Positions 11,561-58,741 of a stretch of 60,355 nt of DNA are shown in pieces; position 1 is the stretch's first letter; each line of letters starts with the position of its first letter. Made by a program: the position numbers and the translations under genes. Source of the DNA: a virus (taxonomy: Duplodnaviria > Caudoviricetes); the IMG/VR virus record IMGVR_UViG_3300028920_000077, positions 1 through 60,355 of that record; one strand, written 5' to 3'. The notes under the pieces were generated by a model. It saw only the letters and a list, made by a program, of their open reading frames with translations. It did not search any database and was not told the DNA's origin.

Positions 11561-14500
11561 TTATGGTATCCTTACAACAATCTCATTAAGTTGACCAGTG
11601 TTAATAGTATATTCTATATAAATACCTTCCATCCTGTCTGTCAATGTAAATTGCTTTGCAACAACGCCTGTTACAGCCTGTGTGCTAACTAAAACAAGTG
11701 GAGATGTAGTATCATATACCTTTATAGTTATATCAGAGCCAGGTGAACAAGAAACAAAGATTGTTTTTGGTCTAGTTCTGAACCAAGTATTATTTAATCT
11801 GACTGTATTCCCAGACACAGTCTTAGGTATATCTATCATATTCCAGTATCTACCAGTCCAAGGTGTTTTAGTTAAGTAAGTTACATTCGGACTTATGGTC
11901 GGTGTATTGGTTATTGTAAACGTACTAGTAATAGTAGGTGTATTGGTTATTGTAAACGTACTAGTAATAGTAGGTGTATTGGTAAATGTATTTGTATAAG
12001 TGTTAGTTACTGTTTCAGTATTTGTAAAAGTTACTGTTTCAGTATGTGTAGGTGTATGTGTAAGTGTAAATGTATTTGTGATAGTAGGAGTGTTTGTGAT
12101 AGTAGGTGTATATGTGCAAGTTCCTATTCCATCATCAATCAACTCTATATAATCAAATCTCCAATACTTATCACCCATACTTTCTGATGCTCCCGTTAAT
12201 GTTAAACATAGAACATTATGAGTTGGATTGTAATTGGTTACAATTGTTTTTTGTTCCCATACATACTCTACAGAAGGTGTAATATTAATATCATTAATTT
12301 GAGAACAAGAACAATCATTCCAAGTTGCTTCATCTAATCTGGCATATAACCCACCAGCAAAAGAAGAATTAGAGGAGTCTTTCCTAACCCAAATCTTAAT
12401 AGTATACAACCTTGAAGGATCTACCAAGAATGTTTTAACAGCAGAATGTTGACCAGTTAGGTCTGAAGCTGTTATGAAACCTGCATAAGTTCCTTCATAT
12501 TTTGTTGTAGAATTACAACCCAAACTTCCATCACCACAATCTGTCCAATCAGTGCAAGTTCCAGTTTCGAAATCATCCAAAACTATTCCAGTACAACCAA
12601 ATAAAGTTGCTGTTGGATAGAGCGTCGGTGTATCAGTATTTGTCACTGTAAATGTATTTGTAGGAGTATTAGTAAATGTATGTGTGTTAGTTGAAGTATT
12701 TGTAAATGTATTTGTCGCTGTAAATGTATTTGTCGCTGTAAATGTATTTGTAGGAGTATTAGTAAATGTATTTGTGACAGTTGGAGTGCAAGTAATTCCT
12801 GTTAAATCTTGAACTTCTATTAAATCATATAATGCTACATATTGAGAACCAAATGAGTTATAGTTTGTATTAAGCGAAATACAAGTATCTGCACTTAAAG
12901 CTAAAAATCCGTTAGATATTGTCTTTTGTTCCCAGGTATCTAGTGTTGATGGAGTAATATTATTATTGAAATGTCTTAAATCATCTTGATCACAAGGACA
13001 ATCATTACATTCTCCATTATATACATTACCAAATAATTGAAGATTACTATTTGTTGAATACGCCCAAGCTGTTATTTTATAATTATGCCCTGGGATAGTT
13101 TTCAATTTTATTGTTGTAACATTATTCTTATTTGGTGATCCCGCAGGTGAATGGTATAAAACTCCTGAACCACTATATGCTAGTCCATCGAAATAACATT
13201 CATTAATAGGTGTGCCACCAGTATCTTGACAATATGTATAATCCCAACATTCTAACGAAGATTCAAAGTCAAAAACCTGCTTAATACAACCTACAAGTGG
13301 TGTAGCTGTTGATAAAAAGGTGCAAGTATATGTAGATGTATTAGTAGGTGTAGATGTATTTGTCACTGTAAATGTATTTGTCACAGTACTAGTTGGTGTA
13401 TTAGTAATTGTAAATGTTTCTGTAACAGTATTAGTAATTGTATTGGTAGGTGTATTAGTTGGTGTGCAAGTTCCAGAAGTTGGAGGATCTTCTGTTCCTG
13501 ATCCTGAATTATGCCTTTCTGTTACTTCACATTGTGATAATTCATAATCATAAATTACGAATTCATCTATTTGACCGATTAAATCTAATACACTAGACAT
13601 AAGAATGCCTATCTGGAAATTACTTGTATAAGATAATGTTTCAGTAAGAGAATCACTTAATACAGAAACATCTTCATTATTTCCATCTATATAAACATTT
13701 GTTCCACTTGCGTCGGTTGTATCATCACAGGTAATTACTAGATGATGGAAAGTATTGTTATTCCATCCGTCACTTACTGTAATTATACTTAATAGGTTGG
13801 AACCATTATAAAAACTAAATTGAATATTTCCGTTATTACTCAATAAACAATAATATCCATCACTACCTGAACTATAATTGCTAAATAATGTAACAGTAGT
13901 AGGTAACCCAGATTCAACCTTAAACCAACATTCTATAGAAAAGGCATCATCTGTTTGAAATCTTGCTATTGTTCCACAATCTATATATTCATTTGAATCA
14001 CCATCTAAATCTATACAATTATTTAATTTTCCTGAAACCCAATCTACATCTTCTATATTTGTTCCTGTAGCATTTCTACCATTACCAGAGCTATCAGCCA
14101 CAAAAGTTCCTGATGTTTCATTTAAATGATAATGAGCATATAATCCCCATTTAGGTGTATTTGTGGTGGTAGGTGTGTTTGTATTAGTAGGTGTGTTTGT
14201 AGTGGTAAAGGTATTTGTAATAGTGAAAGTATTGGTAGGTGCATTTGTGGACGTGGAAGTACTAGTTGGTGTGCAAGTGCTTAATCCTACTGGAATAACT
14301 TCTAAATTATCAAACCAATAAGAATTGCCAGGACTTTGACTATAAACCTCCAATTTCACACAAATCATAGAACCAGAAGGATCAAAATCAGTTGCCAAGA
14401 CTTTCCTTTGCCAAGTATCATTGGAATTTGGTTGGATTATAACACCAGCAATATCTTCGCATAAGCATCCATTACAACCATCATCTGAATCCTCCACCAA

Positions 14501-25974: not shown

Positions 25975-26225
25975 CCTCTTGATTTTTTTATTCTATTTCT
26001 TATATTATTCCATTGTGGTAATTTCCTGCCACATTGTGGACAGAATCTAAACTTATGTAACATATATTTGTAGTTATTATTTAAATGCCTAGGCTCTAAC
26101 ATCGGACAGCCCTCAGCAGAATTAAAAGAATATAACTTTACAAAACCATAATGTAGGAATAATATACAAGCATTACCTCTCTTGCCACAACTCATATTTT
26201 TAACTTCTTTCTTATCCAGTTCCAT
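25929..26225 (-). CDS. Small Cys-rich protein
   Basis: FCPQCG zinc-ribbon motif. Confidence 0.5.
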   Translation of the reverse strand: MELDKKEVKNMSCGKRGNACILFLHYGFVKLYSFNSAEGCPMLEPRHLNNNYKYMLHKFRFCPQCGRKLPQWNNIRNRIKKSRGWITEQRRTVWTKKD

Positions 26226-27310
26226 ATAGCTTTTATAATTGTTTCTTTTATGGAAGTTTTTGTTTCTGACTCTTCTGTTTCTTTTTCTATTATGTATATA
26301 GGCTTAAGCTGTGTTGGCTCTGTGGCACAATCCCAAACTTCGTCTATATGAATATTATAATAATGCTCATAAGCTAACCATAAACCACCATTAAAACCGA
26401 CTATATCACAGTATGAATATTCTGCAACTTCACTTTCAAATTCTTTATTATCATCTTTTAGCTCATCAACTATTTTATGTAACTTTATTTTCTTGCCAGA
26501 GTTGGTGGTAAATGCAACAAATACAGTCTCTTCACCATCAACATAAATTCTAGCCCAACTATCTATACCCTTAACTACATAATTTACAGCATCTAATTCA
26601 AGAGTACGTGCTTGTTTAGTTTCTATATCATAAGTGAATAGATATTGTGTATGATCTTTCTTATCATCTCTAAATGTTACAATAAAAGCATGGTATAATA
26701 TTCCATTTTTAAATACCATAGAACCTTCTGAAACAGTATAGGTGTCATCTGTTGGTTTTGGTATTATTACAGCATAATTATCTAAGAAATTTTTAATCAT
26801 ACCAGCCTCATTTGCACATCTATAGCTAACAAACATTTGGCTGATATCATTTATTTGCCATTCTTTTGGGCCTTCGTATATGGTTTGTTTCTGTTTTTTT
26901 ATACAATCAAAAATTTCTATTTTATAGTGTTTCTTTTTAGACCAACAGGCATAAGCACACATAGGTGCATCAAATCCCGAATCTATCCTGACAGTGTTAA
27001 TTATATAACCACCAGCATGGATTTGAGTTTCTTCTATAATATCATCTTGGTCTATATCAAATACTATCAATGCCAACTGTTCACAATTATAAAAATCAGG
27101 ATTACCATATACTATGTAAATTTTATTACTATAATTATCAAAGGCACATTGTGGTCTGTTAAACCTGTTATCAACAGGTCTTGAAATAAAAACCTTTTCC
27201 GTTACTATCTTCTTTTCTTTATTCCAGACTTTTAGTGATAATTTGTTATGAGTTAAATAGCATAAAGCTAAATATTTATCATTTGCTGCTAAACTTGGAT
27301 GTGTCTCCAT
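26192..27310 (-). CDS. Hypothetical protein, possibly beta-propeller
   Basis: 372 aa, AGGAG RBS, repeated beta-strand units (KIYIVY, ILYHAF, VFVAF, LWLAY). Confidence 0.6.
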   Translation of the reverse strand: METHPSLAANDKYLALCYLTHNKLSLKVWNKEKKIVTEKVFISRPVDNRFNRPQCAFDNYSNKIYIVYGNPDFYNCEQLALIVFDIDQDDIIEETQIHAGGYIINTVRIDSGFDAPMCAYACWSKKKHYKIEIFDCIKKQKQTIYEGPKEWQINDISQMFVSYRCANEAGMIKNFLDNYAVIIPKPTDDTYTVSEGSMVFKNGILYHAFIVTFRDDKKDHTQYLFTYDIETKQARTLELDAVNYVVKGIDSWARIYVDGEETVFVAFTTNSGKKIKLHKIVDELKDDNKEFESEVAEYSYCDIVGFNGGLWLAYEHYYNIHIDEVWDCATEPTQLKPIYIIEKETEESETKTSIKETIIKAIWNWIRKKLKI

Positions 27311-27376: not shown

Positions 27377-27733
27377 TCATAATTGTTTCCTTTGTTCTAT
27401 AGTTAAATCTAATATTTCAGCCAAAGCATTTAATTTTTGGCTTTTCCAAATATCTTTTTTTATTTTCCGTTTTGGGATCTTCATTACACATGAATTTCTG
27501 AATACTTCATAAACAAGAAATTCTTTAACAGGATATTGGACATATTGCTGTTCATTAGGTATAAATCCAATCTCATATTGCTGTCTCATTCTTTTATAAT
27601 ATTTGTCTCTTATATAAATAAGACATTCGGTATAGGTAGTGAAATATCGCATGGAACATTCTCTAATAAAACCATTGCATTTTCTACAAACAATGTAATG
27701 TCTATTAGCAAATATTTCATTTTCGTCTTGCAT
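27377..27733 (-). CDS. Hypothetical protein (CxxC)
   Basis: 118 aa with RBS. Confidence 0.55.
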   Translation of the reverse strand: MQDENEIFANRHYIVCRKCNGFIRECSMRYFTTYTECLIYIRDKYYKRMRQQYEIGFIPNEQQYVQYPVKEFLVYEVFRNSCVMKIPKRKIKKDIWKSQKLNALAEILDLTIEQRKQL

Positions 27734-27902
27734 TTAATTCTCCTTTTTGTTTCCTTTTCAATCTACACCAATCAGGTGTTTCGGGATAATTTTTTATAAT
27801 CCTTTCTGTGAAGCCACTATAAAAATTATCGCAAGTATGTGTTATATCATCAAAAAAATCATATTCATGATGATGTTTACAGCTTTTGCAGGTCAATAGC
27901 AT
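27717..27902 (-). CDS. Small Cys4 protein (CxxC...C...PxWCxL)
   Basis: Same cysteine pattern as 40643..40828 and 44479..44685. Confidence 0.6.
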   Translation of the reverse strand: MLLTCKSCKHHHEYDFFDDITHTCDNFYSGFTERIIKNYPETPDWCRLKRKQKGELNARRK

Positions 27903-27933
27903 ATTTTTTTCTCAGAGGGAACATTTTTTCATC

Positions 27934-28280: not shown

Positions 28281-31200
28281 TTATATTTCATTATTAACTC
28301 CATAGTATTTATTTGTTTTTGTTATCTTTTCATTATTTTTTCTCTTCACCTTTTGTATCAATGCATTGATGTAGTTCTCTGCAATTCCAACTTTGCTAGA
28401 AACTGCACTTGCAGTATCAAATCTTTTTTCTATGCTAAAACATCTAGTTTGTTTATTATCAATTTCCTTTGTTTTCTGTTTTGTTTCTACGACTAAATTA
28501 ACTAATTGCGAGAGCTTTGTTTTTGTTAGCGGGAAGTCTGGTTTATTTTCAAGAAAATAATCCATCATATCATTTGGGTTGTATTCATCCTTATCGGCTA
28601 TATATTCCCTAATCTCTTCTAATAACCTATATTCATAGAATGAAATATCAACAGCGATATAGCTTAAATCTACCTTTTCCATTATATTCCTATTAACAAA
28701 ATGTTTAATTATTTTAAGTTTGTTATTGACTTTGCGTGTACTTTCTTGAGCTAATTTCAATAAATCCTTTTCATTTTGTTCATCTATGCAACTCTTCATT
28801 TTATGTAACTTAACATAGTTTTTTAACATTTTCAAGTCAATTATATGATTATTATTTTTATAATATTCTTCTAATGTATTGGTAGGAATCATACTATGTT
28901 TTGGCTTTTGTGAGTATTTTTTATACTCAAAGGTGGCTAAAATAAGATTTTTTTCTGCATGAATACCATCATTTACCTTTACATATTCATTTTTATCTAT
29001 TTTTTCAGCTAATTCCTTGTTATAATTTTTGATTTTCTTTTTATTAGTTGCCCTTTTTTCTTTCAGTTCTTTTGTGATTTCTTCTTCTATGTTAATAGAA
29101 TTAATCTTTTGTTCACCCACACTCCAAGATTTATACATATCAGATAGAAAGAAAGGATTATTATAAATCTTTCTATAATATTTTCTCATAATATCTAGTC
29201 TAATCTGGAACTGATTCGGAATATATTTATACCCATCCCAAATAATATACTTATTTAGTATATTAATTTTTTTGAGTGCGATTAGATATTCTTCTTTGTA
29301 TTGATCAACTTCAAATTTTATGTTAGATACTAATTCTGCTTCCATTTTGTGTCTTGATAATAGGTTGCAATATTTTTTAATCTTTTTAATTCTATCCTTT
29401 ACCATTAATGTATAGTTATCTAAATCATTCAGTTCTTTATTATTTCTATATAACACATATATTTTATCACAGCCATGCCTAAATCTACTCAGAAATTGCT
29501 TTTGTAAATGTGGTAAATCTTGAGATAGCATAACTATGTTATATCCTTTATCATTAATTGAAATACCTTCTGCTATAACTTGTGTTGTAAAAAGGATATC
29601 AAGGTTTTCTGGTAAACAATTATGTTTAATGATATGTTTATAAATATCAGTATGTTTCAGATCTCTGTTCAATTTTCCAACAGATTTATTTATTTTTTTT
29701 CTAATCAAATCTGTTAGCATATTGATATCATTCCTGTTATTAAGTAATACTATAGTTTTATTTTTGCTCTGCTTTACTATTTGATATATTGCTTCTAGCT
29801 TCTTTTCATAAGCAATGACATTCACTTCAGTATTTTCAAATGGATTATGTTCTCTTTCTATTTCTATAACTGGATCATCTCCGAAAACACCATAATGAGT
29901 TCCAGTTAAGTAAACAAAGTTTGGGAATTTTTCTTTACATTCCATTATGAATTTAAGTGCTTTAAACCTGTAATCATTAGATGTTAGTAGATTATGTGCC
30001 TCATCCATAATCACAATCCAATTGTTAAAGTCTATGTCACATTTGGTTACTTTTTTTAAGCCCTCGTAGGTGGTAGTGATAACTTTATTACCATTATTGA
30101 TCATTGTTTTGACTTCATTTTCACAAACAAATCCGTCTATGTATGGTATTTCATATTGGTTGGATGTTTGTGAATTGGTTGCCATTAAACTTTGTAATAC
30201 TAATATTCTTTTATCAGTATATTCTGGCAAGTCTTTGATAACCAGCTTTGTTTTACCAACACCCGTAGGTGCAACGATAATTGTATGTTTATGTCCTAGT
30301 ATATGGTTACATATTTCTTCTTTCTTCTCGCTCAACCATTTATTAACTTTTATCTTTGTTGTTTTTTTATTGAAGATTTGTTTAAAATATTCTTTATTTT
30401 TTGTAAGGGTGTAATGGTACAGAACTGGATCTTTTTGTTTTAATACTTGGCTTAATGTATATATTGTCTGATCATGATGGTCAGTAGCCAAGTAAGAATT
30501 TTTATATAAACACATTGAATAATTTAAATCAGGTGCATGAAAGGGGCAACCAATACTCAGGTAACTAGGGTATTCTTTATATTTAATCTTAAACTTCATT
30601 AAAAGGTTGTGGATTGAGTCTTTTTTAAGGAGGGATTTTGTTGATTTGAGGGTTTTTTTATCATACTTACTTATGTAATTACCCTTACGTATTAGTTGCC
30701 TCAGAACGTGTTTCTTTTTATGTTTATTTTTTCTTTTAATATTTTTTAATTTCAAATTTAATTTTGGTGGGATATATTTAATCACAGGATCATTTAATAT
30801 CTTTTCAATGAAGCTAGTTATTAATTCGCTATCTATTACAGGTGCAAAATCAATATCTCCGTATAGTTTATATTCTTTTATTTCACCTAATTTATTTATA
30901 ACTTTAGAAGGTGAAACTGCTAAAAGAGAATTTTGCCCTCTTAGTTCAACCTTAAAAGGTTCTATTATTTTTCTTAGGAACACTTCTTCATTCTTAATTT
31001 TGTTCTTTGATATTACTAATATGTCATCTTTAATGGATGGTTTAAAGTCCAAGAGATCAAATATTTTACTTTCTATAAATGAATTAAATTTTTTATTTGT
31101 TTTAATTATATAACAATCATCCATCTCAGTAACTTCTTTAACTGGACAGGTGCAATTTGCTATGATTGTTTTATAATTCTCTGTGCAAGCAAATAAAATA

Positions 31201-31484
31201 TGTTTGCCACCACTGGGTGATTCTTGATAAACTAAGTTATCTTTACCAGTATGTTTTTTGAAAAGTTCAAATATATATTCCTTAACCACTGGATCATAAA
31301 TATCTATATCTATTGCATATAATTTTTCTATTTCACCCTCTCCAAGCCTAATAGACCTGTTCCCAGTATAAGTTTTAGGGAGTTTTCTGCTTGTTGGTAT
31401 GTATCTAGGGTCTAATTTACTATTCCAAATTTCAATAGGGATTTTCTTATTATTTGTTTTGATTTCTGTATATACTATGCTCAT
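28281..31484 (-). CDS. Primase-polymerase / Zn-finger / SF2 helicase fusion
   Basis: IDID and ESPSGGKH (prim-pol), CPFH, APTGVGKT, MDEAH, LTGT, EGISI and QFLSRFR motifs. Confidence 0.85.
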   Translation of the reverse strand: MSIVYTEIKTNNKKIPIEIWNSKLDPRYIPTSRKLPKTYTGNRSIRLGEGEIEKLYAIDIDIYDPVVKEYIFELFKKHTGKDNLVYQESPSGGKHILFACTENYKTIIANCTCPVKEVTEMDDCYIIKTNKKFNSFIESKIFDLLDFKPSIKDDILVISKNKIKNEEVFLRKIIEPFKVELRGQNSLLAVSPSKVINKLGEIKEYKLYGDIDFAPVIDSELITSFIEKILNDPVIKYIPPKLNLKLKNIKRKNKHKKKHVLRQLIRKGNYISKYDKKTLKSTKSLLKKDSIHNLLMKFKIKYKEYPSYLSIGCPFHAPDLNYSMCLYKNSYLATDHHDQTIYTLSQVLKQKDPVLYHYTLTKNKEYFKQIFNKKTTKIKVNKWLSEKKEEICNHILGHKHTIIVAPTGVGKTKLVIKDLPEYTDKRILVLQSLMATNSQTSNQYEIPYIDGFVCENEVKTMINNGNKVITTTYEGLKKVTKCDIDFNNWIVIMDEAHNLLTSNDYRFKALKFIMECKEKFPNFVYLTGTHYGVFGDDPVIEIEREHNPFENTEVNVIAYEKKLEAIYQIVKQSKNKTIVLLNNRNDINMLTDLIRKKINKSVGKLNRDLKHTDIYKHIIKHNCLPENLDILFTTQVIAEGISINDKGYNIVMLSQDLPHLQKQFLSRFRHGCDKIYVLYRNNKELNDLDNYTLMVKDRIKKIKKYCNLLSRHKMEAELVSNIKFEVDQYKEEYLIALKKINILNKYIIWDGYKYIPNQFQIRLDIMRKYYRKIYNNPFFLSDMYKSWSVGEQKINSINIEEEITKELKEKRATNKKKIKNYNKELAEKIDKNEYVKVNDGIHAEKNLILATFEYKKYSQKPKHSMIPTNTLEEYYKNNNHIIDLKMLKNYVKLHKMKSCIDEQNEKDLLKLAQESTRKVNNKLKIIKHFVNRNIMEKVDLSYIAVDISFYEYRLLEEIREYIADKDEYNPNDMMDYFLENKPDFPLTKTKLSQLVNLVVETKQKTKEIDNKQTRCFSIEKRFDTASAVSSKVGIAENYINALIQKVKRKNNEKITKTNKYYGVNNEI

Positions 31485-40272: not shown

Positions 40273-40646
40273 CGGATGAACTTAAAACAAAAGAACTGAA
40301 TAAATTATCAAGTGATATACTAGATGAATTATGTAAATATTCACACGTATTAGAAAATTATATGATTGTGAATTATGCAAAACCGAGTAAAGAAGAAATA
40401 CATAATATTATTTTTTCTATAGCTTCACACCAAATTAATAATTGTAATAAATTTTTAAATGAATTCTTTTTGGATACTATCACAGAAAGGGAATATGCAA
40501 GTCAGAATGATTTATGTTATTTCAAAGTTAGAGTATGTGGTGGTGTTATTGTCCCACTAAAACTAATTATTGTTTTTAGATATGCTAATGATGATAGAAA
40601 ATTTTATTCCTGTTATTCCACTAATTATTGCGGGATGACACAATGA
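40269..40646 (+). CDS. Hypothetical protein
   Basis: 125 aa, ATGA overlaps. Confidence 0.55.
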   Translation: MTDELKTKELNKLSSDILDELCKYSHVLENYMIVNYAKPSKEEIHNIIFSIASHQINNCNKFLNEFFLDTITEREYASQNDLCYFKVRVCGGVIVPLKLIIVFRYANDDRKFYSCYSTNYCGMTQ

Positions 40647-40828
40647 TAGTAAAACAAATAATTAAAAAAATAACACGATGTGGTGATTGTCCACATTTTG
40701 CAGATACACAAGAACATAAAACATTAAAATATTTTTCAGTTTGCAAACTTGGAAACTTTCTAATTGATATAAACTTTCAAAAAGAAATTGATGAAAGATG
40801 TCCTCTTGATGATTATAATGAAAAATAA
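40643..40828 (+). CDS. Small Cys4 protein
   Basis: CGDCPHF...C...ERCPLDDY; paralog of 44479..44685. Confidence 0.65.
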   Translation: MIVKQIIKKITRCGDCPHFADTQEHKTLKYFSVCKLGNFLIDINFQKEIDERCPLDDYNEK

Positions 40829-41108: not shown

Positions 41109-42830
41109 ATGAAAATGGGATTTTTAGATAATTGGTTCATTCAAAAAGAAAAAAAAGAAAAGAAAGGAACAATTCAAGCATATACTACGGATACACATAT
41201 TATAGCTAAGAACTTGTGTATCTCACACATAAGGATGCTAACACATAATTTCCCGCATGTGTGGCAGGACAATGCTTATTATATCCATAGAGACTGGGCT
41301 AATTATTTCAATTCTATTTTCGGGACTGATTTCACTCCTATTCCTAAAGAAAAGATTAATACAGATAACTTAGTCTTTCATCCATTAGCAAAACCACATC
41401 AGATTGAATTAACAAAAAAATGTATTCAAGACAAAAGACATTCACCTAACCTAGATACTGGTGGTGGCAAGACTCTACTGGGATTAATGATAATTGATAA
41501 TCTATTTAAGATGGGCAGGATAAAAAAACCATTGGTAATTTGCCCTCTATATTTGATTGAAACTAGCTGGTCAGATGATCTAAAAAAGTTTAGTTATGAT
41601 AAAGATTATGAAATAATAAACCTACATAAACTATATTACAGATCTGCTAAGGGTAAAAGGGAAGTCGTAGAGAAATTAAATTCTGATAAAAAATATATAT
41701 TCATGCTGAATTATGAAAGTATAGGCAATCTTAAATTATTATTAATGCCATACATAGACCTTGTCATATTTGATGAGGCAGACTATCTTCAAAACTGGTA
41801 CACCCAAAATACTAAAAATTCTATAGAAATAGCTTGGTATCCTAATGTAGAATTTTGCTATACCATGTCTGGAACACCTTACCCAAATGGTTTTCAAAAC
41901 TGTTGGGGACAGATGGAATGTATTAATAAAGGGTTATTGGGTTCTTATACAGCAGATTTTGAACCTCTGTTTTTTAATAAAACGTATGGATTTAAGTTTA
42001 AGGATAAACGGAGAGAAATATTACTCAGGAAAATATTACATAAACATGCTACATATAAGAAAAAAGAAGAGATACTCCCCGATCTTCCAAAGCACAGCAA
42101 AGTTAAATTATATTGTGAAATGACAAAGAGACAACAGCAGTTGTATAATAAAGTTAAGAAATCTTTGTATAAGATATATAAAGAAATAGAATTTGATGGT
42201 GATACTGTTAAGATTTCTAACTTTTTCGTGCAACTATTAAAGCTCCGACAAATTACTTCTGGGTTCTTAATCATGGATAATGACCATAAAAAAATTAAGC
42301 AAAATCCTAAAAAATTATTACTTGAAAACTTTTTAAAATCTAATTATGATAGACAATTACTTATTTGGACAAATTATGTAATGGAAATGTCTATTGTAAA
42401 AGATTTGGTTGGTAGAACAAACGCTGGTTATATCTGGGGTGGTGCTTCACAAGAATCCAGACAAGAAGCTGCCGAGAAATTTGCTAATAATAAAATCCAG
42501 TATTTAGTAATAAATATCAAGGCGGGGCAGTATGGTTACAATTTCCAGGCATATTGTTATCAAAATTTTTTCTTTTCATTACTAGATAGCTATAAAGATT
42601 TCCACCAAGCTAGTAGTAGAGTAGATAGATTTGGGCAGACAAAACCAGTTGTATCCTATTTCCCATACATCAAAGGAACAGTTGATGATTTACTCTGGGG
42701 CATAATGCAACGTAAAAAAAGAATAAGAGACCTCAGCTTTGAAGAAATAGTAGCAAGTTTAGAGTTTGAAAAAATAATCAAAAGACCAAAAAAAAGGAGA
42801 AAAAATAATGTTTGTAATTACAAAAGATAA
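41109..42830 (+). CDS. SNF2-family helicase
   Basis: DTGGGKT, VICP, NYE, FDEAD, MSGTP, GYNFQ and QASSRVDRFGQ motifs. Confidence 0.9.
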   Translation: MKMGFLDNWFIQKEKKEKKGTIQAYTTDTHIIAKNLCISHIRMLTHNFPHVWQDNAYYIHRDWANYFNSIFGTDFTPIPKEKINTDNLVFHPLAKPHQIELTKKCIQDKRHSPNLDTGGGKTLLGLMIIDNLFKMGRIKKPLVICPLYLIETSWSDDLKKFSYDKDYEIINLHKLYYRSAKGKREVVEKLNSDKKYIFMLNYESIGNLKLLLMPYIDLVIFDEADYLQNWYTQNTKNSIEIAWYPNVEFCYTMSGTPYPNGFQNCWGQMECINKGLLGSYTADFEPLFFNKTYGFKFKDKRREILLRKILHKHATYKKKEEILPDLPKHSKVKLYCEMTKRQQQLYNKVKKSLYKIYKEIEFDGDTVKISNFFVQLLKLRQITSGFLIMDNDHKKIKQNPKKLLLENFLKSNYDRQLLIWTNYVMEMSIVKDLVGRTNAGYIWGGASQESRQEAAEKFANNKIQYLVINIKAGQYGYNFQAYCYQNFFFSLLDSYKDFHQASSRVDRFGQTKPVVSYFPYIKGTVDDLLWGIMQRKKRIRDLSFEEIVASLEFEKIIKRPKKRRKNNVCNYKR

Positions 42831-43122
42831 ATTAGGTTTTTTAGAGGAGAATAAGATGAATTTAAAAGAAGAATTACAAAAGCTAACAAGAGCAGCTAAA
42901 GTAAATAAAAAATGGGAAGGCTGGAAGAAAGACGCAATAAAGAAAATGAAAGCCTTTGCCAAAGAAGGACACACAAGTTGTGCGTTAGTTCTCCCCCCAA
43001 AAATAGGAGAATTAATATTTGCAGCACAAATAATGGATTGGGAAAAAGAGATAGGAATGACTTTAAAATTTGATAAAGATTTATTAGCAGGCAAAAAATA
43101 TATTGTTGATTGGAGCGAATAA
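42808..43122 (+). CDS. Hypothetical protein
   Basis: 104 aa; similar in pattern to the next ORF (A.EG/ARRG...V.W). Confidence 0.55.
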   Translation: MFVITKDKLGFLEENKMNLKEELQKLTRAAKVNKKWEGWKKDAIKKMKAFAKEGHTSCALVLPPKIGELIFAAQIMDWEKEIGMTLKFDKDLLAGKKYIVDWSE

Positions 43123-43412
43123 AGATGAAATTGGTAGAAGAATTAAGAATTTATTCTAATCTAAAAAAAAATGAAGATGAAGCTAATATCAAAAGAAAAA
43201 AAATCTCACCAATGGATATAGTTAATGATTTACTACGAGAAAGAGCTAGACGAGGGTACGCTGATGCCATTTTAATTTCTTATGCTGGAAGATACTTCCC
43301 ATGTGTCCCCTCTGCATCAGAAATAGCAGATTATTTAAATTCAGAAGGGCTACAAACATTTGTAAGTTATCCAGATGAGGATAAAGTCTATGTTAAATGG
43401 GATGAAGAATAA
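43110..43412 (+). CDS. Hypothetical protein
   Basis: 100 aa. Confidence 0.55.
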   Translation: MERIKMKLVEELRIYSNLKKNEDEANIKRKKISPMDIVNDLLRERARRGYADAILISYAGRYFPCVPSASEIADYLNSEGLQTFVSYPDEDKVYVKWDEE

Positions 43413-44179
43413 TGCCGAAGTTTAATGATATAACAAAGGAAAACTGGAAGGAACAAGCAGACATAATTACTGATAGTCTATGGATATTCAATAAAAGGGA
43501 TAACTCAGGTAAACATGATGGTAGTTATCATGGTAACTTTATCCCTCAAATCCCTAGACAGTTGATTAAAAGATATACTAAACCAGGTGATATTGTATTA
43601 GACCCCTTTATGGGGTCTGGTACAACTGCATTTGTTTGTGAAGAGTTGGATCGTAAATTTATTGGTATAGATATTCAACCCAAGATGGTGGATCATGTCA
43701 GGAATAAACTAGATAGAGAAGATTACATTCTCTATATAGAAGATAGCCAGGTAGATAGTTGGATTTGGGATTTTAAAAAACAAGTACAACTAGCAATACT
43801 CCACCCACCGTATTGGGATATAATTAAATTCAGTAATGATATCGGAGACTTGTCAAATAATGGTATCTATTCAAACTTCAAACTATCTTTTGATTTGGTT
43901 ATGGAGAATGTTCTGTATACTGTAAAAGAAGGTGGTTATATAGCTTTAGTGGCTGGTGATGCTTATAGAGATAAACAAGTATACCCTATTGGTTTTGACC
44001 TCTGCAAAATCATTACAGACAACGAAGACATCAAGCTAAAAGGCATAATAATCAAGAACATGGCAGGTAATAGAGCGAAGCAGAGTCAACAAGGGCTTTG
44101 GCGATACAGAGCTTTAATGTCAGATTATTATATATTTAAACATGAATACATCTTTGTTTTTAAAAAGGAGATGCAATAA
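43412..44179 (+). CDS. DNA amino-methyltransferase (N6A/N4C)
   Basis: DPFMGSGTT (motif I) precedes HPPY (motif IV); HEYIFVFKK. Confidence 0.9.
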   Translation: MPKFNDITKENWKEQADIITDSLWIFNKRDNSGKHDGSYHGNFIPQIPRQLIKRYTKPGDIVLDPFMGSGTTAFVCEELDRKFIGIDIQPKMVDHVRNKLDREDYILYIEDSQVDSWIWDFKKQVQLAILHPPYWDIIKFSNDIGDLSNNGIYSNFKLSFDLVMENVLYTVKEGGYIALVAGDAYRDKQVYPIGFDLCKIITDNEDIKLKGIIIKNMAGNRAKQSQQGLWRYRALMSDYYIFKHEYIFVFKKEMQ

Positions 44180-44225
44180 ATAACTTCAAATTAAAATATC
44201 AAAATAATTGGAATGGAGTATTTAA

Positions 44226-44498
44226 ATGAAAATTAGACGTGGTGGTTGAAAGAAGTTTGACTGTAGCGGTGCTACGAACAAGGAACATTGTGGGAACTGT
44301 GTATTTAAGTTAAGTAAATCAAAGAAAATTCATTACTGCCAAAACCCAATGAACGCCTATTCGTATGATGAAGGTAAAGACCTGTCTAAAGAAACTTATG
44401 ATAGGTTTATATTCAGACGTGGTAGTCTTGTTAGGCTTGGTAGATTTTTTAAATGCAATTTTTATAGGAGAAACCAGAATGACACAAAGAAAACTTAA
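44226..44498 (+). CDS. Cys-rich ORF with in-frame TGA at codon 8 (candidate selenoprotein or pseudogene)
   Basis: GGAG RBS at 44215. Reads MKIRRGG*KKFDCSGATNKEHCGNCVFK and stays open 82 codons past the TGA (44247-44249). Hairpin at 44262-44276. Confidence 0.55.
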
Positions 44499-44685
44499 AC
44501 AGATAAGAAAAACAACGATAATACGAACCTGCTCAGATTGTCCTTTTTATATAGAAAATGCTGAAAGTAAAGGCGGTTCACTTTACGATATCTGTTGTTA
44601 TAAAGATGATTATTTATTTGAGATAAGGGATGCCGATATTGCAATCCCTGATCAATGCAAGTTGGAGGATTATGAAAGTGCATGA
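44479..44685 (+). CDS. Small Cys4 protein
   Basis: AGGAG RBS at 44466; CSDCPFY...CC...IPDQCKLEDY. Confidence 0.65.
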   Translation: MTQRKLKQIRKTTIIRTCSDCPFYIENAESKGGSLYDICCYKDDYLFEIRDADIAIPDQCKLEDYESA

Positions 44686-45586
44686 AATTAAAGAACATAT
44701 AGATAGGTTATGTAAAGGTAAGAGAATATTAATATGCCATCATGATGATCTTGATGGCTATTTCTCTTGCTGGTTGTTTCTAAAGTATTTTGAAATGAAT
44801 GATATCGAAGTAGAGGGTAACTTGCCAGTCAACTATAAACATAAATGGTATGAGAAAAAAAAGTTTCCAAAGAATACTGTTGTGATATTCCTAGACATAC
44901 ATTGTAATCCATTAACTAAATATTACATCCATATAGACCATCATTCAAATAAAGATGAGATTCAAATCCATAAGAACGTCATAGTGATTAATACTAAACA
45001 AGAGGTATGCACTACTATGGCTACTTGGCTCATACTCTTCTTTTATCATTCTACTAATCTTGTTTTTTTTGATAATTTTATGGGATTAATTACAAACAAT
45101 ATAGATTATATGGTTAGAGTGGTGAACTGTTATGATACTGGAATGAAAGATGCTATAGAAAAAGAATATAAATATATACATATTTTCTTGGGACAAATTT
45201 ACAAAATAATCAAAGAAGACATGCTCATACCTGAGAAATACCCCCCGTATCAAATTCCAACAAATATAAAACCTTCCATTTTTGAGGATGCCATCCTATT
45301 CAAAATTGAAGATGAACACGAACCGTTTCTTGATCTGTATAAATCATATTTCTGCCATTGGACATATAATAGGGATTGGTATAAAGGGCAGGCTATTGTT
45401 TTTCACCATGACCAAAAAGATAAAATCCGTTTGTCTGTCAGATGTCATAAACCACTCAAACCGTTTCTCCAAAAGTATAGGTTGGAGCTTTCAGGGCATA
45501 GCCATTCTCAAGGTGGATATCTGGAAATTCAGAAATTTCTTGATTTCCTGATAGAACTGGAAATAGGAGTTGAAGATGAAACTTAA
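44672..45586 (+). CDS. DHH-family phosphoesterase
   Basis: HHDDLDG, FLD, IDHH, LSVR and SGH..G motifs. Confidence 0.8.
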   Translation: MKVHEIKEHIDRLCKGKRILICHHDDLDGYFSCWLFLKYFEMNDIEVEGNLPVNYKHKWYEKKKFPKNTVVIFLDIHCNPLTKYYIHIDHHSNKDEIQIHKNVIVINTKQEVCTTMATWLILFFYHSTNLVFFDNFMGLITNNIDYMVRVVNCYDTGMKDAIEKEYKYIHIFLGQIYKIIKEDMLIPEKYPPYQIPTNIKPSIFEDAILFKIEDEHEPFLDLYKSYFCHWTYNRDWYKGQAIVFHHDQKDKIRLSVRCHKPLKPFLQKYRLELSGHSHSQGGYLEIQKFLDFLIELEIGVEDET

Positions 45587-46001
45587 ATTTATAATGGAAA
45601 AGCTAAGAAAATATAGACAATTCTTAGATATTGAAAAAGCACCTGTAAAATATAAAAAGAAATGTTCCAGGTGTTTATCATTCTTTGAAAATGTATATCT
45701 ATTTGATGAAGAAAGTGATATCGTAGATATATCTGCTTTCCTCAGAACTGAATATCATAGCTTAAATCTGAAGTATAAAGAGACAAATAATAAAAAACAT
45801 TTAGAAAAGGCAAGGGAAATTAAACTAAATTTGAAGTATATCTCTGAAAGATTTGCAATTGATTTAGTTCAGGATTTACTGAAAATTAGGGATCATTGTA
45901 ATTACAGAAATAGAAATATTCCTAAACATAAAAGATATAACTTTCAATCCAGGAACAAATCACAGGTGAAGTCTAAAGCAACTTGGAAACAAATAGACTA
46001 A
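45570..46001 (+). CDS. Hypothetical protein (CxxC)
   Basis: Last gene of the rightward arm. Confidence 0.55.
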   Translation: MKMKLKFIMEKLRKYRQFLDIEKAPVKYKKKCSRCLSFFENVYLFDEESDIVDISAFLRTEYHSLNLKYKETNNKKHLEKAREIKLNLKYISERFAIDLVQDLLKIRDHCNYRNRNIPKHKRYNFQSRNKSQVKSKATWKQID

Positions 46002-53481: not shown

Positions 53482-54492
53482 TTATAATAATTTCAGTCTT
53501 ATATTTGTTATGTTATGGTAGTTCGCATTTATTTCTGAGCCGATGTAATTTATATTTAGTTGTTTAGCTGCGATGAGTGTAGAGCCTGAGCCTGCGAATG
53601 GGTCGTATATAATTGGTTCAAATTGATTAGGAGGTGTAATGAGTTTAATCAGGTATTGCAGTAATTTAATTGGTTTAACGGTTGGGTGGTTATTTACAGG
53701 GGTTCTTTCTTTTTTAGATGTTTTTGGGCAGTAGAAGAAGCGTGCAGCCGAGCCTTGTTCTTTTCCTCTCAGTTCATTTTGTGAATTAACTCCTCCCATA
53801 TTAAAGATAGAGTTTTCTGTTTTTTTATCTTTTGAATTTTTCCCCCATGGTCCTTTAACGTTTGGGAATAGGTTTAGTACTAATTGCGATCCGTCGTGTA
53901 TGAAGTTAGCGGGGAATCTGCCTTGTTTATATCCACCTTCATTACCTAATAATCCTTTACCGAAAGAGTTACTTTTACATTCTTTGCTATTTTTTCTACC
54001 TTGTTCTACAATTTCATTCCCAACTCTACAGCCGTTGATATTCAGTCCTCCAGTTCCGTATTTGAGGCAGTTTTTAGCAATTGTTTTTTCTGTCAGTGGT
54101 TTTCTAGCTAGGGTAATAAGTTCCATAGCGGGTTTTAAGTTTGATCCATAGCCTTTAAAGTCTTGGTTTTTTTTGCCTATATTATGTGATTTTGGGAAGC
54201 CTTCTCCGTACACCCATGCGATTATATCTCTAATTTCGTAACCAGCGTCTTCTATGTTCACAGCCATTCTATGTTGTGTTCTGGTACCGCAGAATACGAG
54301 GATATGTCCGCCAGGTTTCAGAATTCTCAGACATTCTTTCCAAATTTCAATGGATGGTATATTATAGTCCCATTTTTTGTTCATGAATGAGATTCCGTAT
54401 GGTGGGTCTGTTATGATGGCAGATATGAAGTTATCTGGCATTTGTTTCATGGTAATCAAGCAGTCTTCGTTATAGCAGGTATTAAGTTTCAT
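53482..54492 (-). CDS. Beta-class DNA methyltransferase (N6A/N4C)
   Basis: TDPPY, GFPKS, HPTVKP and DPFAGSG motifs; likely start MKLNTCYNEDC. Confidence 0.9.
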   Translation of the reverse strand: MKLNTCYNEDCLITMKQMPDNFISAIITDPPYGISFMNKKWDYNIPSIEIWKECLRILKPGGHILVFCGTRTQHRMAVNIEDAGYEIRDIIAWVYGEGFPKSHNIGKKNQDFKGYGSNLKPAMELITLARKPLTEKTIAKNCLKYGTGGLNINGCRVGNEIVEQGRKNSKECKSNSFGKGLLGNEGGYKQGRFPANFIHDGSQLVLNLFPNVKGPWGKNSKDKKTENSIFNMGGVNSQNELRGKEQGSAARFFYCPKTSKKERTPVNNHPTVKPIKLLQYLIKLITPPNQFEPIIYDPFAGSGSTLIAAKQLNINYIGSEINANYHNITNIRLKLL

Positions 54493-54766
54493 CTTTTTTT
54501 TCTCTTCCCCATGCTTGTATGAATGCGACTTCTTGCCAGTCTGGGTCGCATATTTCGTCATTGGCGTCCCATTCGAATATGGATGCTTGTTCAATTACCC
54601 ATCCATCTCTTTTAGAATCGTAGCTAATTCTTATTTCGTCTGATGCTCTTACGCTACACATCCCTAGAATTATATGTGATTTTTGTTCATTTTGATAGAT
54701 ATTTGGGTATAGCCAGTCTATGTAAGTGTCTATTGCTTTTCCGTCTTTATTCCCTTTAATTTTCAT
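54482..54766 (-). CDS. Hypothetical phage protein
   Basis: 94 aa; IRISYDSKRDGWVIEQ..DWQEVAFI. Confidence 0.65.
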   Translation of the reverse strand: MKIKGNKDGKAIDTYIDWLYPNIYQNEQKSHIILGMCSVRASDEIRISYDSKRDGWVIEQASIFEWDANDEICDPDWQEVAFIQAWGREKKDET

Positions 54767-58346: not shown

Positions 58347-58428
58347 TACGGATGGAGGGATTTGAACCCCCACGATTTTACTCGCCAGATCCTAAGTCTG
58401 GTGTGTCTGCCAATTGGGCTACACTCGC
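58347..58428 (-). tRNA. tRNA-Leu(TAG)
   Basis: CCAGA-CTTAGGA-TCTGG anticodon arm, long variable arm, GTTCAAATC T-loop. One acceptor mismatch; no encoded CCA. Confidence 0.85.
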
Positions 58429-58483
58429 TAAATTTACCTCAAGTTTGAACCTCTTCCCACGTGCCACCACCTTGAGGTGTAAG

Positions 58484-58556
58484 CGTATCAGACAGGAGTT
58501 GAACCTGTAACCATCGGATTAAACATCCACTACTCTACCAGTTGAGCTACTGATAC
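58484..58556 (-). tRNA. tRNA-Asn duplicate with remodelled anticodon arm (loop TGTTTAA; TTT if read canonically)
   Basis: Same as 58669-58741 outside the anticodon arm except for two stem changes that keep pairing. Confidence 0.65.
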
Positions 58557-58668
58557 GGATTATTAATTAAGCCCCGAATTCCACCGATTAGGTTGAAGAC
58601 GGGATTTTGCAGGCGTCCCATAGGTCGGTATTCTTTAACTTAGTTCATCCTGCACTCTTTTATTTAAG

Positions 58669-58741
58669 CGTATCAGACAGGAGTTGAACCTGTAACCAAC
58701 GGATTAACAGCCCGCTGCTCTACCAGTTGAGCTACCGATAC
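58669..58741 (-). tRNA. tRNA-Asn(GTT)
   Basis: GCGGG-CTGTTAA-TCCGT anticodon arm, G73 discriminator, full cloverleaf. Confidence 0.9.

Follow-up and report, generated by a model that had tools for sequence, protein, structure and literature searches.

In SECIS elements of the Escherichia coli fdhF type, nt 15–31 form a stem-loop with G23 and U24 in its apical loop, and a bulged U17 contacts SelB; when U17 is mutated, readthrough is lost in E. coli (passages of PMC8659212). The bSECIS consensus of Zhang and Gladyshev is summarised in PMC13188914, where the legend of Fig. 2 gives (i) a loop of 3–9 nt and an upper stem of 4–16 bp, (ii) a G within the first two loop positions, mostly as N1-G-[G/U]-N-N2, (iii) a UGA-to-loop distance of 16–37 nt and (iv) a minimum free energy (MFE) of −7.5 kcal/mol or lower. 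According to passages of the deep-Sep paper (PMC12013277), Cys homologues exist for almost all selenoproteins, and predictions based on SECIS elements include many false positives. For viruses, passages of PMC8310308 name the glutathione peroxidases of the poxviruses molluscum contagiosum and fowlpox as genes whose UGA is known to encode Sec, the fowlpox SECIS being located inside the coding region. No bacteriophage selenoprotein was found in print in the literature searched, and the word 'phage' occurs 0 times in the passages of the reviews PMC13188914 and PMC13326102. Here we describe a small Cys-rich open reading frame of a tailed phage that is interrupted by TGA at codon 8 and followed by a SECIS-like hairpin. 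In our assessment, this TGA acts as an ordinary stop codon somewhat more probably than as the Sec codon of a phage selenoprotein.

The window analysed spans 60,355 bp and corresponds to an entire IMG/VR virus record, which is linear, has 30.9% GC and is approximately 53% complete according to CheckV. The DNA originates from marine-sediment metagenomes and the habitat is anoxic marine sediment. The virus is a tailed phage, with TerL, a portal protein fused to a MuF-like part and a major head protein encoded on the minus strand. The plus strand carries an early/replication operon with a PD-(D/E)XK nuclease, an SNF2 helicase, an N6/N4 methyltransferase and a DHH phosphoesterase-like protein (Pfam/PHROG). 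The phage encodes two DNA methyltransferases of the N6/N4 type, at 43412–44179 (+) and 53482–54594 (−). Two ORFs of 1067 aa (28281–31484, −) and 372 aa (26192–27310, −) had no PHROG match at E ≤ 0.001. A tRNA cluster at 58347–58741 (−) comprises Leu(TAG), Lys(TTT) and Asn(GTT), all confirmed by Rfam; a 96-nt 'tRNA-Asn(att)' predicted by ARAGORN at 13782–13877 (−), inside a 1105-aa gene, was not confirmed by Rfam. The features of the interrupted ORF and its surroundings are as follows:

43412–44179, plus strand: upstream neighbour, N6/N4 DNA methyltransferase (Pfam PF01555, E = 1.2e-27; PHROG methyltransferase families match too)
44215–44218, plus strand: Shine–Dalgarno (SD)-like GGAG, 7 nt 5′ of the ATG
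44226–44246, plus strand: ATG and six codons, encoding MKIRRGG; an in-frame TAA at 44223–44225 directly precedes, so that the frame opens at the ATG
44247–44249, plus strand: in-frame TGA, codon 8, next base A
44250–44348, plus strand: 33 open codons with four of the five Cys codons, non-coding in appearance by codon statistics
44256–44282, plus strand: SECIS-like stem-loop with a lower stem of 4 bp (44256–44259/44279–44282), an upper stem of 6 bp (44262–44267/44271–44276) and the loop GGT (44268–44270)
44349–44498, plus strand: 49-codon ORF from an ATG, 3′ part of the same frame with the TAA at its end, coding in appearance by codon statistics
44479–44685, plus strand: downstream neighbour, a 68-aa four-Cys protein with an AGGAG SD and two paralogues in the window

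The initial annotation had proposed a GGAG, an ATG at 44226, the peptide MKIRRGG, the TGA at 44247–44249 and 82 further open codons, and all of these were found in the sequence. The codons after the TGA (KKFDCSGATNKEHCGNC...KCNFYRRNQNDTKKT) run to the TAA at 44496–44498. The read-through frame contains five Cys, four of which are C13, C22, C25 and C38 in read-through numbering, and includes a CxxC motif. The stretch from the TGA to the ATG at 44349 lacks in-frame ATG, GTG and TTG codons, which led us to reject an internal non-canonical start for the Cys-rich part, and the remaining two forward frames are closed within 24 codons. Thus, the Cys-rich part could be obtained only by decoding of the UGA. 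The 49-codon ORF has no SD, its ATG lies 170 nt past the previous stop codon and it overlaps the next gene, which starts with the ATG at 44479, by 20 nt; the missing SD and the long distance speak against simple termination at codon 8. The exact 49-codon product was absent from a collection of 15 billion proteins. No promoter- or terminator-like sites were seen in the gap, and the AlphaFold2 model of the single read-through sequence was uninformative (pLDDT 41.2).

The gap had also been described as empty. This holds for 44180–44397, in which no gene caller placed a protein, an observation in favour of an ordinary stop, with a caveat for 44398–44478, which is entered by one public call, P0010 (95 aa), an upstream extension of the next gene in a frame different from that of the candidate. 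The segment 44365–44498 is open in two frames, that of the candidate 3′ end and that of the upstream extension of the 68-aa gene, and public calls comprise both the 95-aa P0010 and the 68-aa version. A variant contig suggested by a cluster look-up proved to be only another gene call on the identical sequence. In addition, the region contains a 30-nt direct repeat with 70% identity, one copy in the SD/start region (44201–44230) and one inside the Cys-rich part (44284–44313), and a 12-nt repeat, AGACGTGGTGGT and AGACGTGGTAGT, which encodes RRGG and RRGS in frame. Both repeats are probably due to chance.

Contigs from two sequencing runs were compared with the record to check for a sequencing error at the TGA. 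In the probable source run (X1), a contig of approximately 49-fold coverage was identical over 42800–46000, and a 266-nt contig from a run of another study (X2) covered 44063–44328 with 0 differences. For neither contig did the comparison list a variant letter or an indel, but rare variants are hidden in contigs. No RNA data set was listed as carrying the stretch. X1 and X2 are both marine-sediment runs from 2019, possibly from one campaign, and since they contain the same phage they do not represent independent lineages. The agreement of the two contigs shows that the TGA is real, and a sequencing or assembly error was rejected on these grounds.

To establish what TGA means in this phage, 56 genes were chosen by hand from the lists of ORFs, taking the first start codon of non-nested ORFs on the dominant strand. 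TAA terminates 38 of them, TGA 15 and TAG three; six gene pairs overlap by ATGA, and among 16,312 codons there are 0 in-frame stops, TGA included. These data bear out the earlier statement that TGA is a normal stop elsewhere in the genome and that there is no genome-wide recoding. They argue for an ordinary stop at codon 8, and the lack of any further in-frame TGA in the 56 genes counts against Sec insertion. The MuF-like gene, too, is free of in-frame TGA codons. The context TGA-A is the commonest among the genuine TGA stops (6 of 15) and is shared by codon 8, which likewise favours termination. When TGA was read as sense, genes were lengthened by a few codons only, and the gaps that seemed to be filled contain ordinary small ORFs. 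Genome-wide reassignment of TGA (codes 4/25) was therefore rejected, given 0 in-frame TGA in 16,312 codons, six ATGA overlaps and no gap ORF in need of a sense TGA. Searches for a tRNA-Sec or a suppressor tRNA and for SelB-wing_3 and SelA gave no match in the 60-kb record, which is approximately 53% complete; this, too, supports an ordinary stop. The TGA is thus real and a stop codon elsewhere in the phage, whereas we infer that no recoding takes place at 44247–44249.

Folding gave TGTAGC-GGT-GCTACG (44262–44276) as the MFE structure, its loop located at nt 22–24 counted from the U of the UGA. The hairpin UGUAGC-GGU-GCUACG postulated by the initial annotation, with GGU at nt 22–24, is therefore the predicted fold. 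The claim that G23 and U24 occur at the fdhF offset also proved correct by the definition in passages of PMC8659212, with the loop formed by G22, G23 and U24 and the hairpin by nt 16–30. On the other hand, the bulged U17 required by E. coli SelB (passages of PMC8659212) is absent: position 17 is a G that pairs with C29 in a stem free of bulges, which speaks against Sec insertion. A 6-bp upper stem, a GGU loop and a spacing of 18 nt agree with rules (i)–(iii) of the bSECIS model as given in the legend of PMC13188914, and C-GGU-G matches the commonest published loop pattern given there. The loop has 3 nt, the minimum allowed by the model in that legend, which weakens the case for a SECIS. The energy is borderline compared with the −7.5 kcal/mol of the model: the element alone (UGA plus 42 nt) reached −6.5 kcal/mol, and a 60-nt segment reached −9.7 kcal/mol only with a second, unrelated hairpin. 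No Rfam SECIS or other family matched the site at E ≤ 10, which counts against a SECIS.

We implemented the bSECIS rules on MFE folds and measured pass rates for 45 nt at −6.5 kcal/mol and for 60 nt at −7.5 kcal/mol. At the first setting 39 of 2152 TGA triplets of the window passed and at the second 115 of 2150 (1.8–5.3%), with 0 and 1, respectively, of the 15 genuine TGA stops. Synonymous recodings of the same peptide passed in 129/3000 and 258/3000 cases, respectively. A strict test (G23/U24 in the loop and 6 bp or more in the stem) was passed by 10 of 2150 TGA triplets and by 138 of 5000 recodings, so that synonymous recodings passed at 2.8–8.6% overall, whereas a cruder test of the stem only was passed by 247/2150 triplets. 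The rarity of passing hairpins among TGA triplets, genuine stops and recodings alike supports Sec insertion and is unfavourable to an ordinary stop. However, the stability of the element was matched by 636/5000 synonymous recodings, and the 60-nt fold was unexceptional (z = −0.25; 77 of 200 shuffles were as stable), which favours an ordinary stop.

Shuffled sequences, start-site motifs and codon statistics were used to examine whether the frame looks like a gene. Dinucleotide shuffles of the 299-nt gap contained a forward-frame open run of 76 codons or more in 38 of 5000 cases, and in 453 of 5000 when all six frames were considered. An SD-like tetramer 4–11 nt 5′ of the ATG was present at 29 of 57 curated gene starts compared with 147 of 2300 ATG triplets, and at least four Cys codons, as in the 33 codons past the TGA, were found in 36 of 942 off-frame windows. 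The frame is split by its codon usage. The 49 codons from the ATG at 44349 had a codon log-likelihood ratio (LLR) of 11.7; 42 of 303 real windows were as low and 11 of 606 off-frame windows as high. In contrast, the 33 codons past the TGA had a codon LLR of −1.1, as low as only 4/470 real-gene windows, and codons 13–33 past the TGA one of −3.2 (3/749 real-gene windows as low). A synonymous-only score of −0.147 for the 33 codons is very low for real genes, being reached in 6 of 471 real windows and in one of 57 gene 5′ windows. This split argues for termination at the TGA, and the non-coding look of codons 13–33, which lie beyond the element, is a difficulty for Sec insertion.

In the 12 hairpin-forming codons, amino acids are encoded by unusually rare synonyms (9/1338 real-gene windows score as low), and these codons constitute an island of 44% GC; ACG accounts for 2% of Thr codons and AGC for 10% of Ser codons. 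Rare codons and GC island could stem from a selected RNA element, and their coincidence with the hairpin is a point in favour of Sec and against an ordinary stop. By our reading, however, pairing is improved by just two of the element's seven rare codons, AGC and AAC.

Homologues of the ORF were sought in several collections. With tblastn against phages, the best hits (E = 0.2) were tail-fibre genes, and no homologue was detected in IMG/VR, JGI metagenomes or GTDB genomes, by a word search of 5.8 billion clusters or by an exhaustive phmmer search of 1.84 billion representatives. The 82-residue product had no match in Pfam, PHROGs, NCBIfam or PDB. None of the collections searched thus supplied a homologue with Cys or Trp to compare at codon 8. 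For Sec insertion this means that there is no Cys/Sec pair to align; in view of the statement in passages of PMC12013277 that almost all selenoproteins have Cys homologues, it favours an ordinary stop. The phage lineage is very isolated in general, as the candidate ORF, the DHH protein, the helicase, TerL and the major head protein all lack a close relative in the collections searched for each. The DHH neighbour and the helicase had no close relatives in IMG/VR or JGI, and the best relatives of the helicase are 25–30% identical and located in non-syntenic loci. Loci L002–L005, reached via P0002, were rejected as syntenic relatives; only a primase-helicase zinc-finger stretch matches the neighbouring 68-aa protein. 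In the nearest cultured phages, TerL is 28% identical (Arthrobacter phages) and the head protein 25% (Oceanotoga phage). No prophage relative that would point to a host was found, GTDB genomes included, which is a further point against Sec insertion.

The window encodes three small four-Cys paralogues of 61–68 aa (40643–40828, +; 44479–44685, +; 27717–27902, −) with the pattern CxxC...C...(I/T)PxxC(K/P/R)L, two of which match each other with E = 2e-6. All three have normal codon scores (15–24). A profile search of 5.8 billion clusters retrieved only the copies of the window itself, and the 68-aa copy weakly resembles the primase-helicase zinc-finger stretch in loci L002 and L004. The candidate resembles this family in its size, its basic N-terminus and a CxxC knuckle with two further Cys; it is encoded by the same phage and adjoins one of the members. 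It differs from the family in that BLASTP gave no alignment at E ≤ 100 and hhalign aligned only 8–11 columns around the CxxC with a probability below 1%. A second small Cys ORF interrupted by TGA is located at 27932–27717 (−). Its ATG lies one base past the TAG of the previous gene and opens the sequence MKKCSL; within 27932–27900 (−), the in-frame TGA at 27914–27912 is followed by three codons and then by the ATG of the gene itself, and readthrough would create a CxxU-like motif. No SECIS-like hairpin follows this TGA (MFE −4.9, loop without a leading G).

If the TGA at codon 8 is an ordinary stop, ribosomes loading at the SD and the ATG at 44226 would synthesize the heptapeptide MKIRRGG and then be released, and the Cys-rich continuation would not be produced in meaningful amounts. 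Two variants can be distinguished, and under both the hairpin would be incidental. In the first, which we put forward tentatively, only the 49-codon ORF at 44349–44498 is or was coding, and the 33 codons before it would be a leader that is open by chance. This leader reading explains the codon split. It requires the SD and ATG, the Cys codons and the hairpin to be coincidences, and an SD and ATG followed by an 82-codon open frame with four Cys codons and a CxxC rather suggest a real Cys-rich 5′ coding region. In the second variant, which appears unlikely, the whole 90-codon frame would be a small orphan Cys-rich early gene with a nonsense allele fixed at codon 8. A nonsense allele explains the gene-like layout; on the other hand, the hairpin, the rare codons beside it and a hit within the first tenth of the gene would all have to be coincidences. 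Under the competing Sec reading, which we consider rather doubtful, host SelB and Sec-tRNA would be bound to the hairpin at 44262–44276 while the UGA at 44247–44249 is in the A site, by way of a minimal E. coli-like SECIS with a GGU tri-loop and no U bulge. The host would have to be Sec-competent, and the product would be a phage selenoprotein of an orphan family, a Cys-rich early protein of 90 residues (MKIRRGG-U-KKFDC...) with Sec at residue 8, four residues ahead of Cys13. Sec insertion accounts for the hairpin, for the rare codons and for the Cys-rich surroundings, and it makes use of a real in-frame UGA that lies behind a good start and is followed by 82 open codons. The anoxic marine-sediment habitat points in the same direction, Sec use being common there. 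It leaves the poor codon statistics beyond the element unexplained, and its prior from the literature is low because no phage selenoprotein was found in the literature searched, which in turn favours an ordinary stop. A rough likelihood comparison, which is our own and sensitive to the priors, puts the leader, the nonsense allele and Sec insertion within one order of magnitude.

The remaining routes across the UGA carry less weight. Leaky readthrough, programmed or tolerated, would let a near-cognate Trp or Cys tRNA decode the UGA and yield small amounts of the 90-residue protein in addition to the heptapeptide, for which the A1 protein of Qbeta is a precedent. The 82 open codons and the lack of another route to the Cys-rich part are in line with this. 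Nevertheless, we regard it as improbable: the TGA-A context is common among genuine stops, no readthrough-promoting context was shown, the codon statistics past the UGA are poor and there are no relatives showing a conserved stop. Sequencing or assembly error, reassignment of TGA, frameshifting and a hop as in T4 gene 60 are very improbable even when taken jointly. Code 25 would turn GGT GGT TGA into Gly-Gly-Gly, and matching GGT codons flank the stop, at 44244–44246 and, in frame and within the hairpin loop, at 44268–44270, from one of which to the other a ribosome might hop. However, the T4 gene 60 hop requires a longer nascent-peptide signal and the nascent chain here has just 7 residues, so this route was rejected, as was a frameshift, since both other frames are shut within 24 codons.

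The locus is a weak candidate that cannot carry the claim of a phage selenoprotein, because comparative and host support are absent and its sole support is one hairpin and some statistics. If the claim were true, phages would exploit the Sec recoding of their hosts, an orphan selenoprotein family would be added and the synthesis of the protein would follow the selenium supply of the sediment bacterium under infection. As it stands, the locus shows both the reach and the limits of a SECIS-like hairpin as the sole basis of a Sec call, and its practical value is that of a cheap candidate for a reporter assay.

Compared with known systems, the candidate shares with nonsense alleles and pseudogenes in phage accessory genes a single stop in a frame that is open otherwise, an intact SD and start and the use of TGA as a stop elsewhere. 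It is unlike plain nonsense alleles in that no intact relative shows the hit codon and that a SECIS-like hairpin, rare in this genome, comes after the stop. The poxvirus glutathione peroxidases described in passages of PMC8310308 belong to eukaryotic viruses and have SECIS elements of the eukaryote type and clear cellular homologues, whereas the candidate is an orphan ORF of a tailed phage. It also differs from selenoproteins with a CxxU or UxxC motif, since Sec would be residue 8 in a UxxxxC spacing. From SelB/SECIS genes of the E. coli fdhF type it is set apart by the lack of Cys/Sec homologues and of a bulged U17, by a loop of 3 nt and by an energy of −6.5 kcal/mol. With these same genes it has in common an in-frame UGA, a stem-loop within the ORF whose loop starts 18 nt past the UGA, an apical G-G-U loop with G23 and U24 at the fdhF offset and a Cys-rich context.
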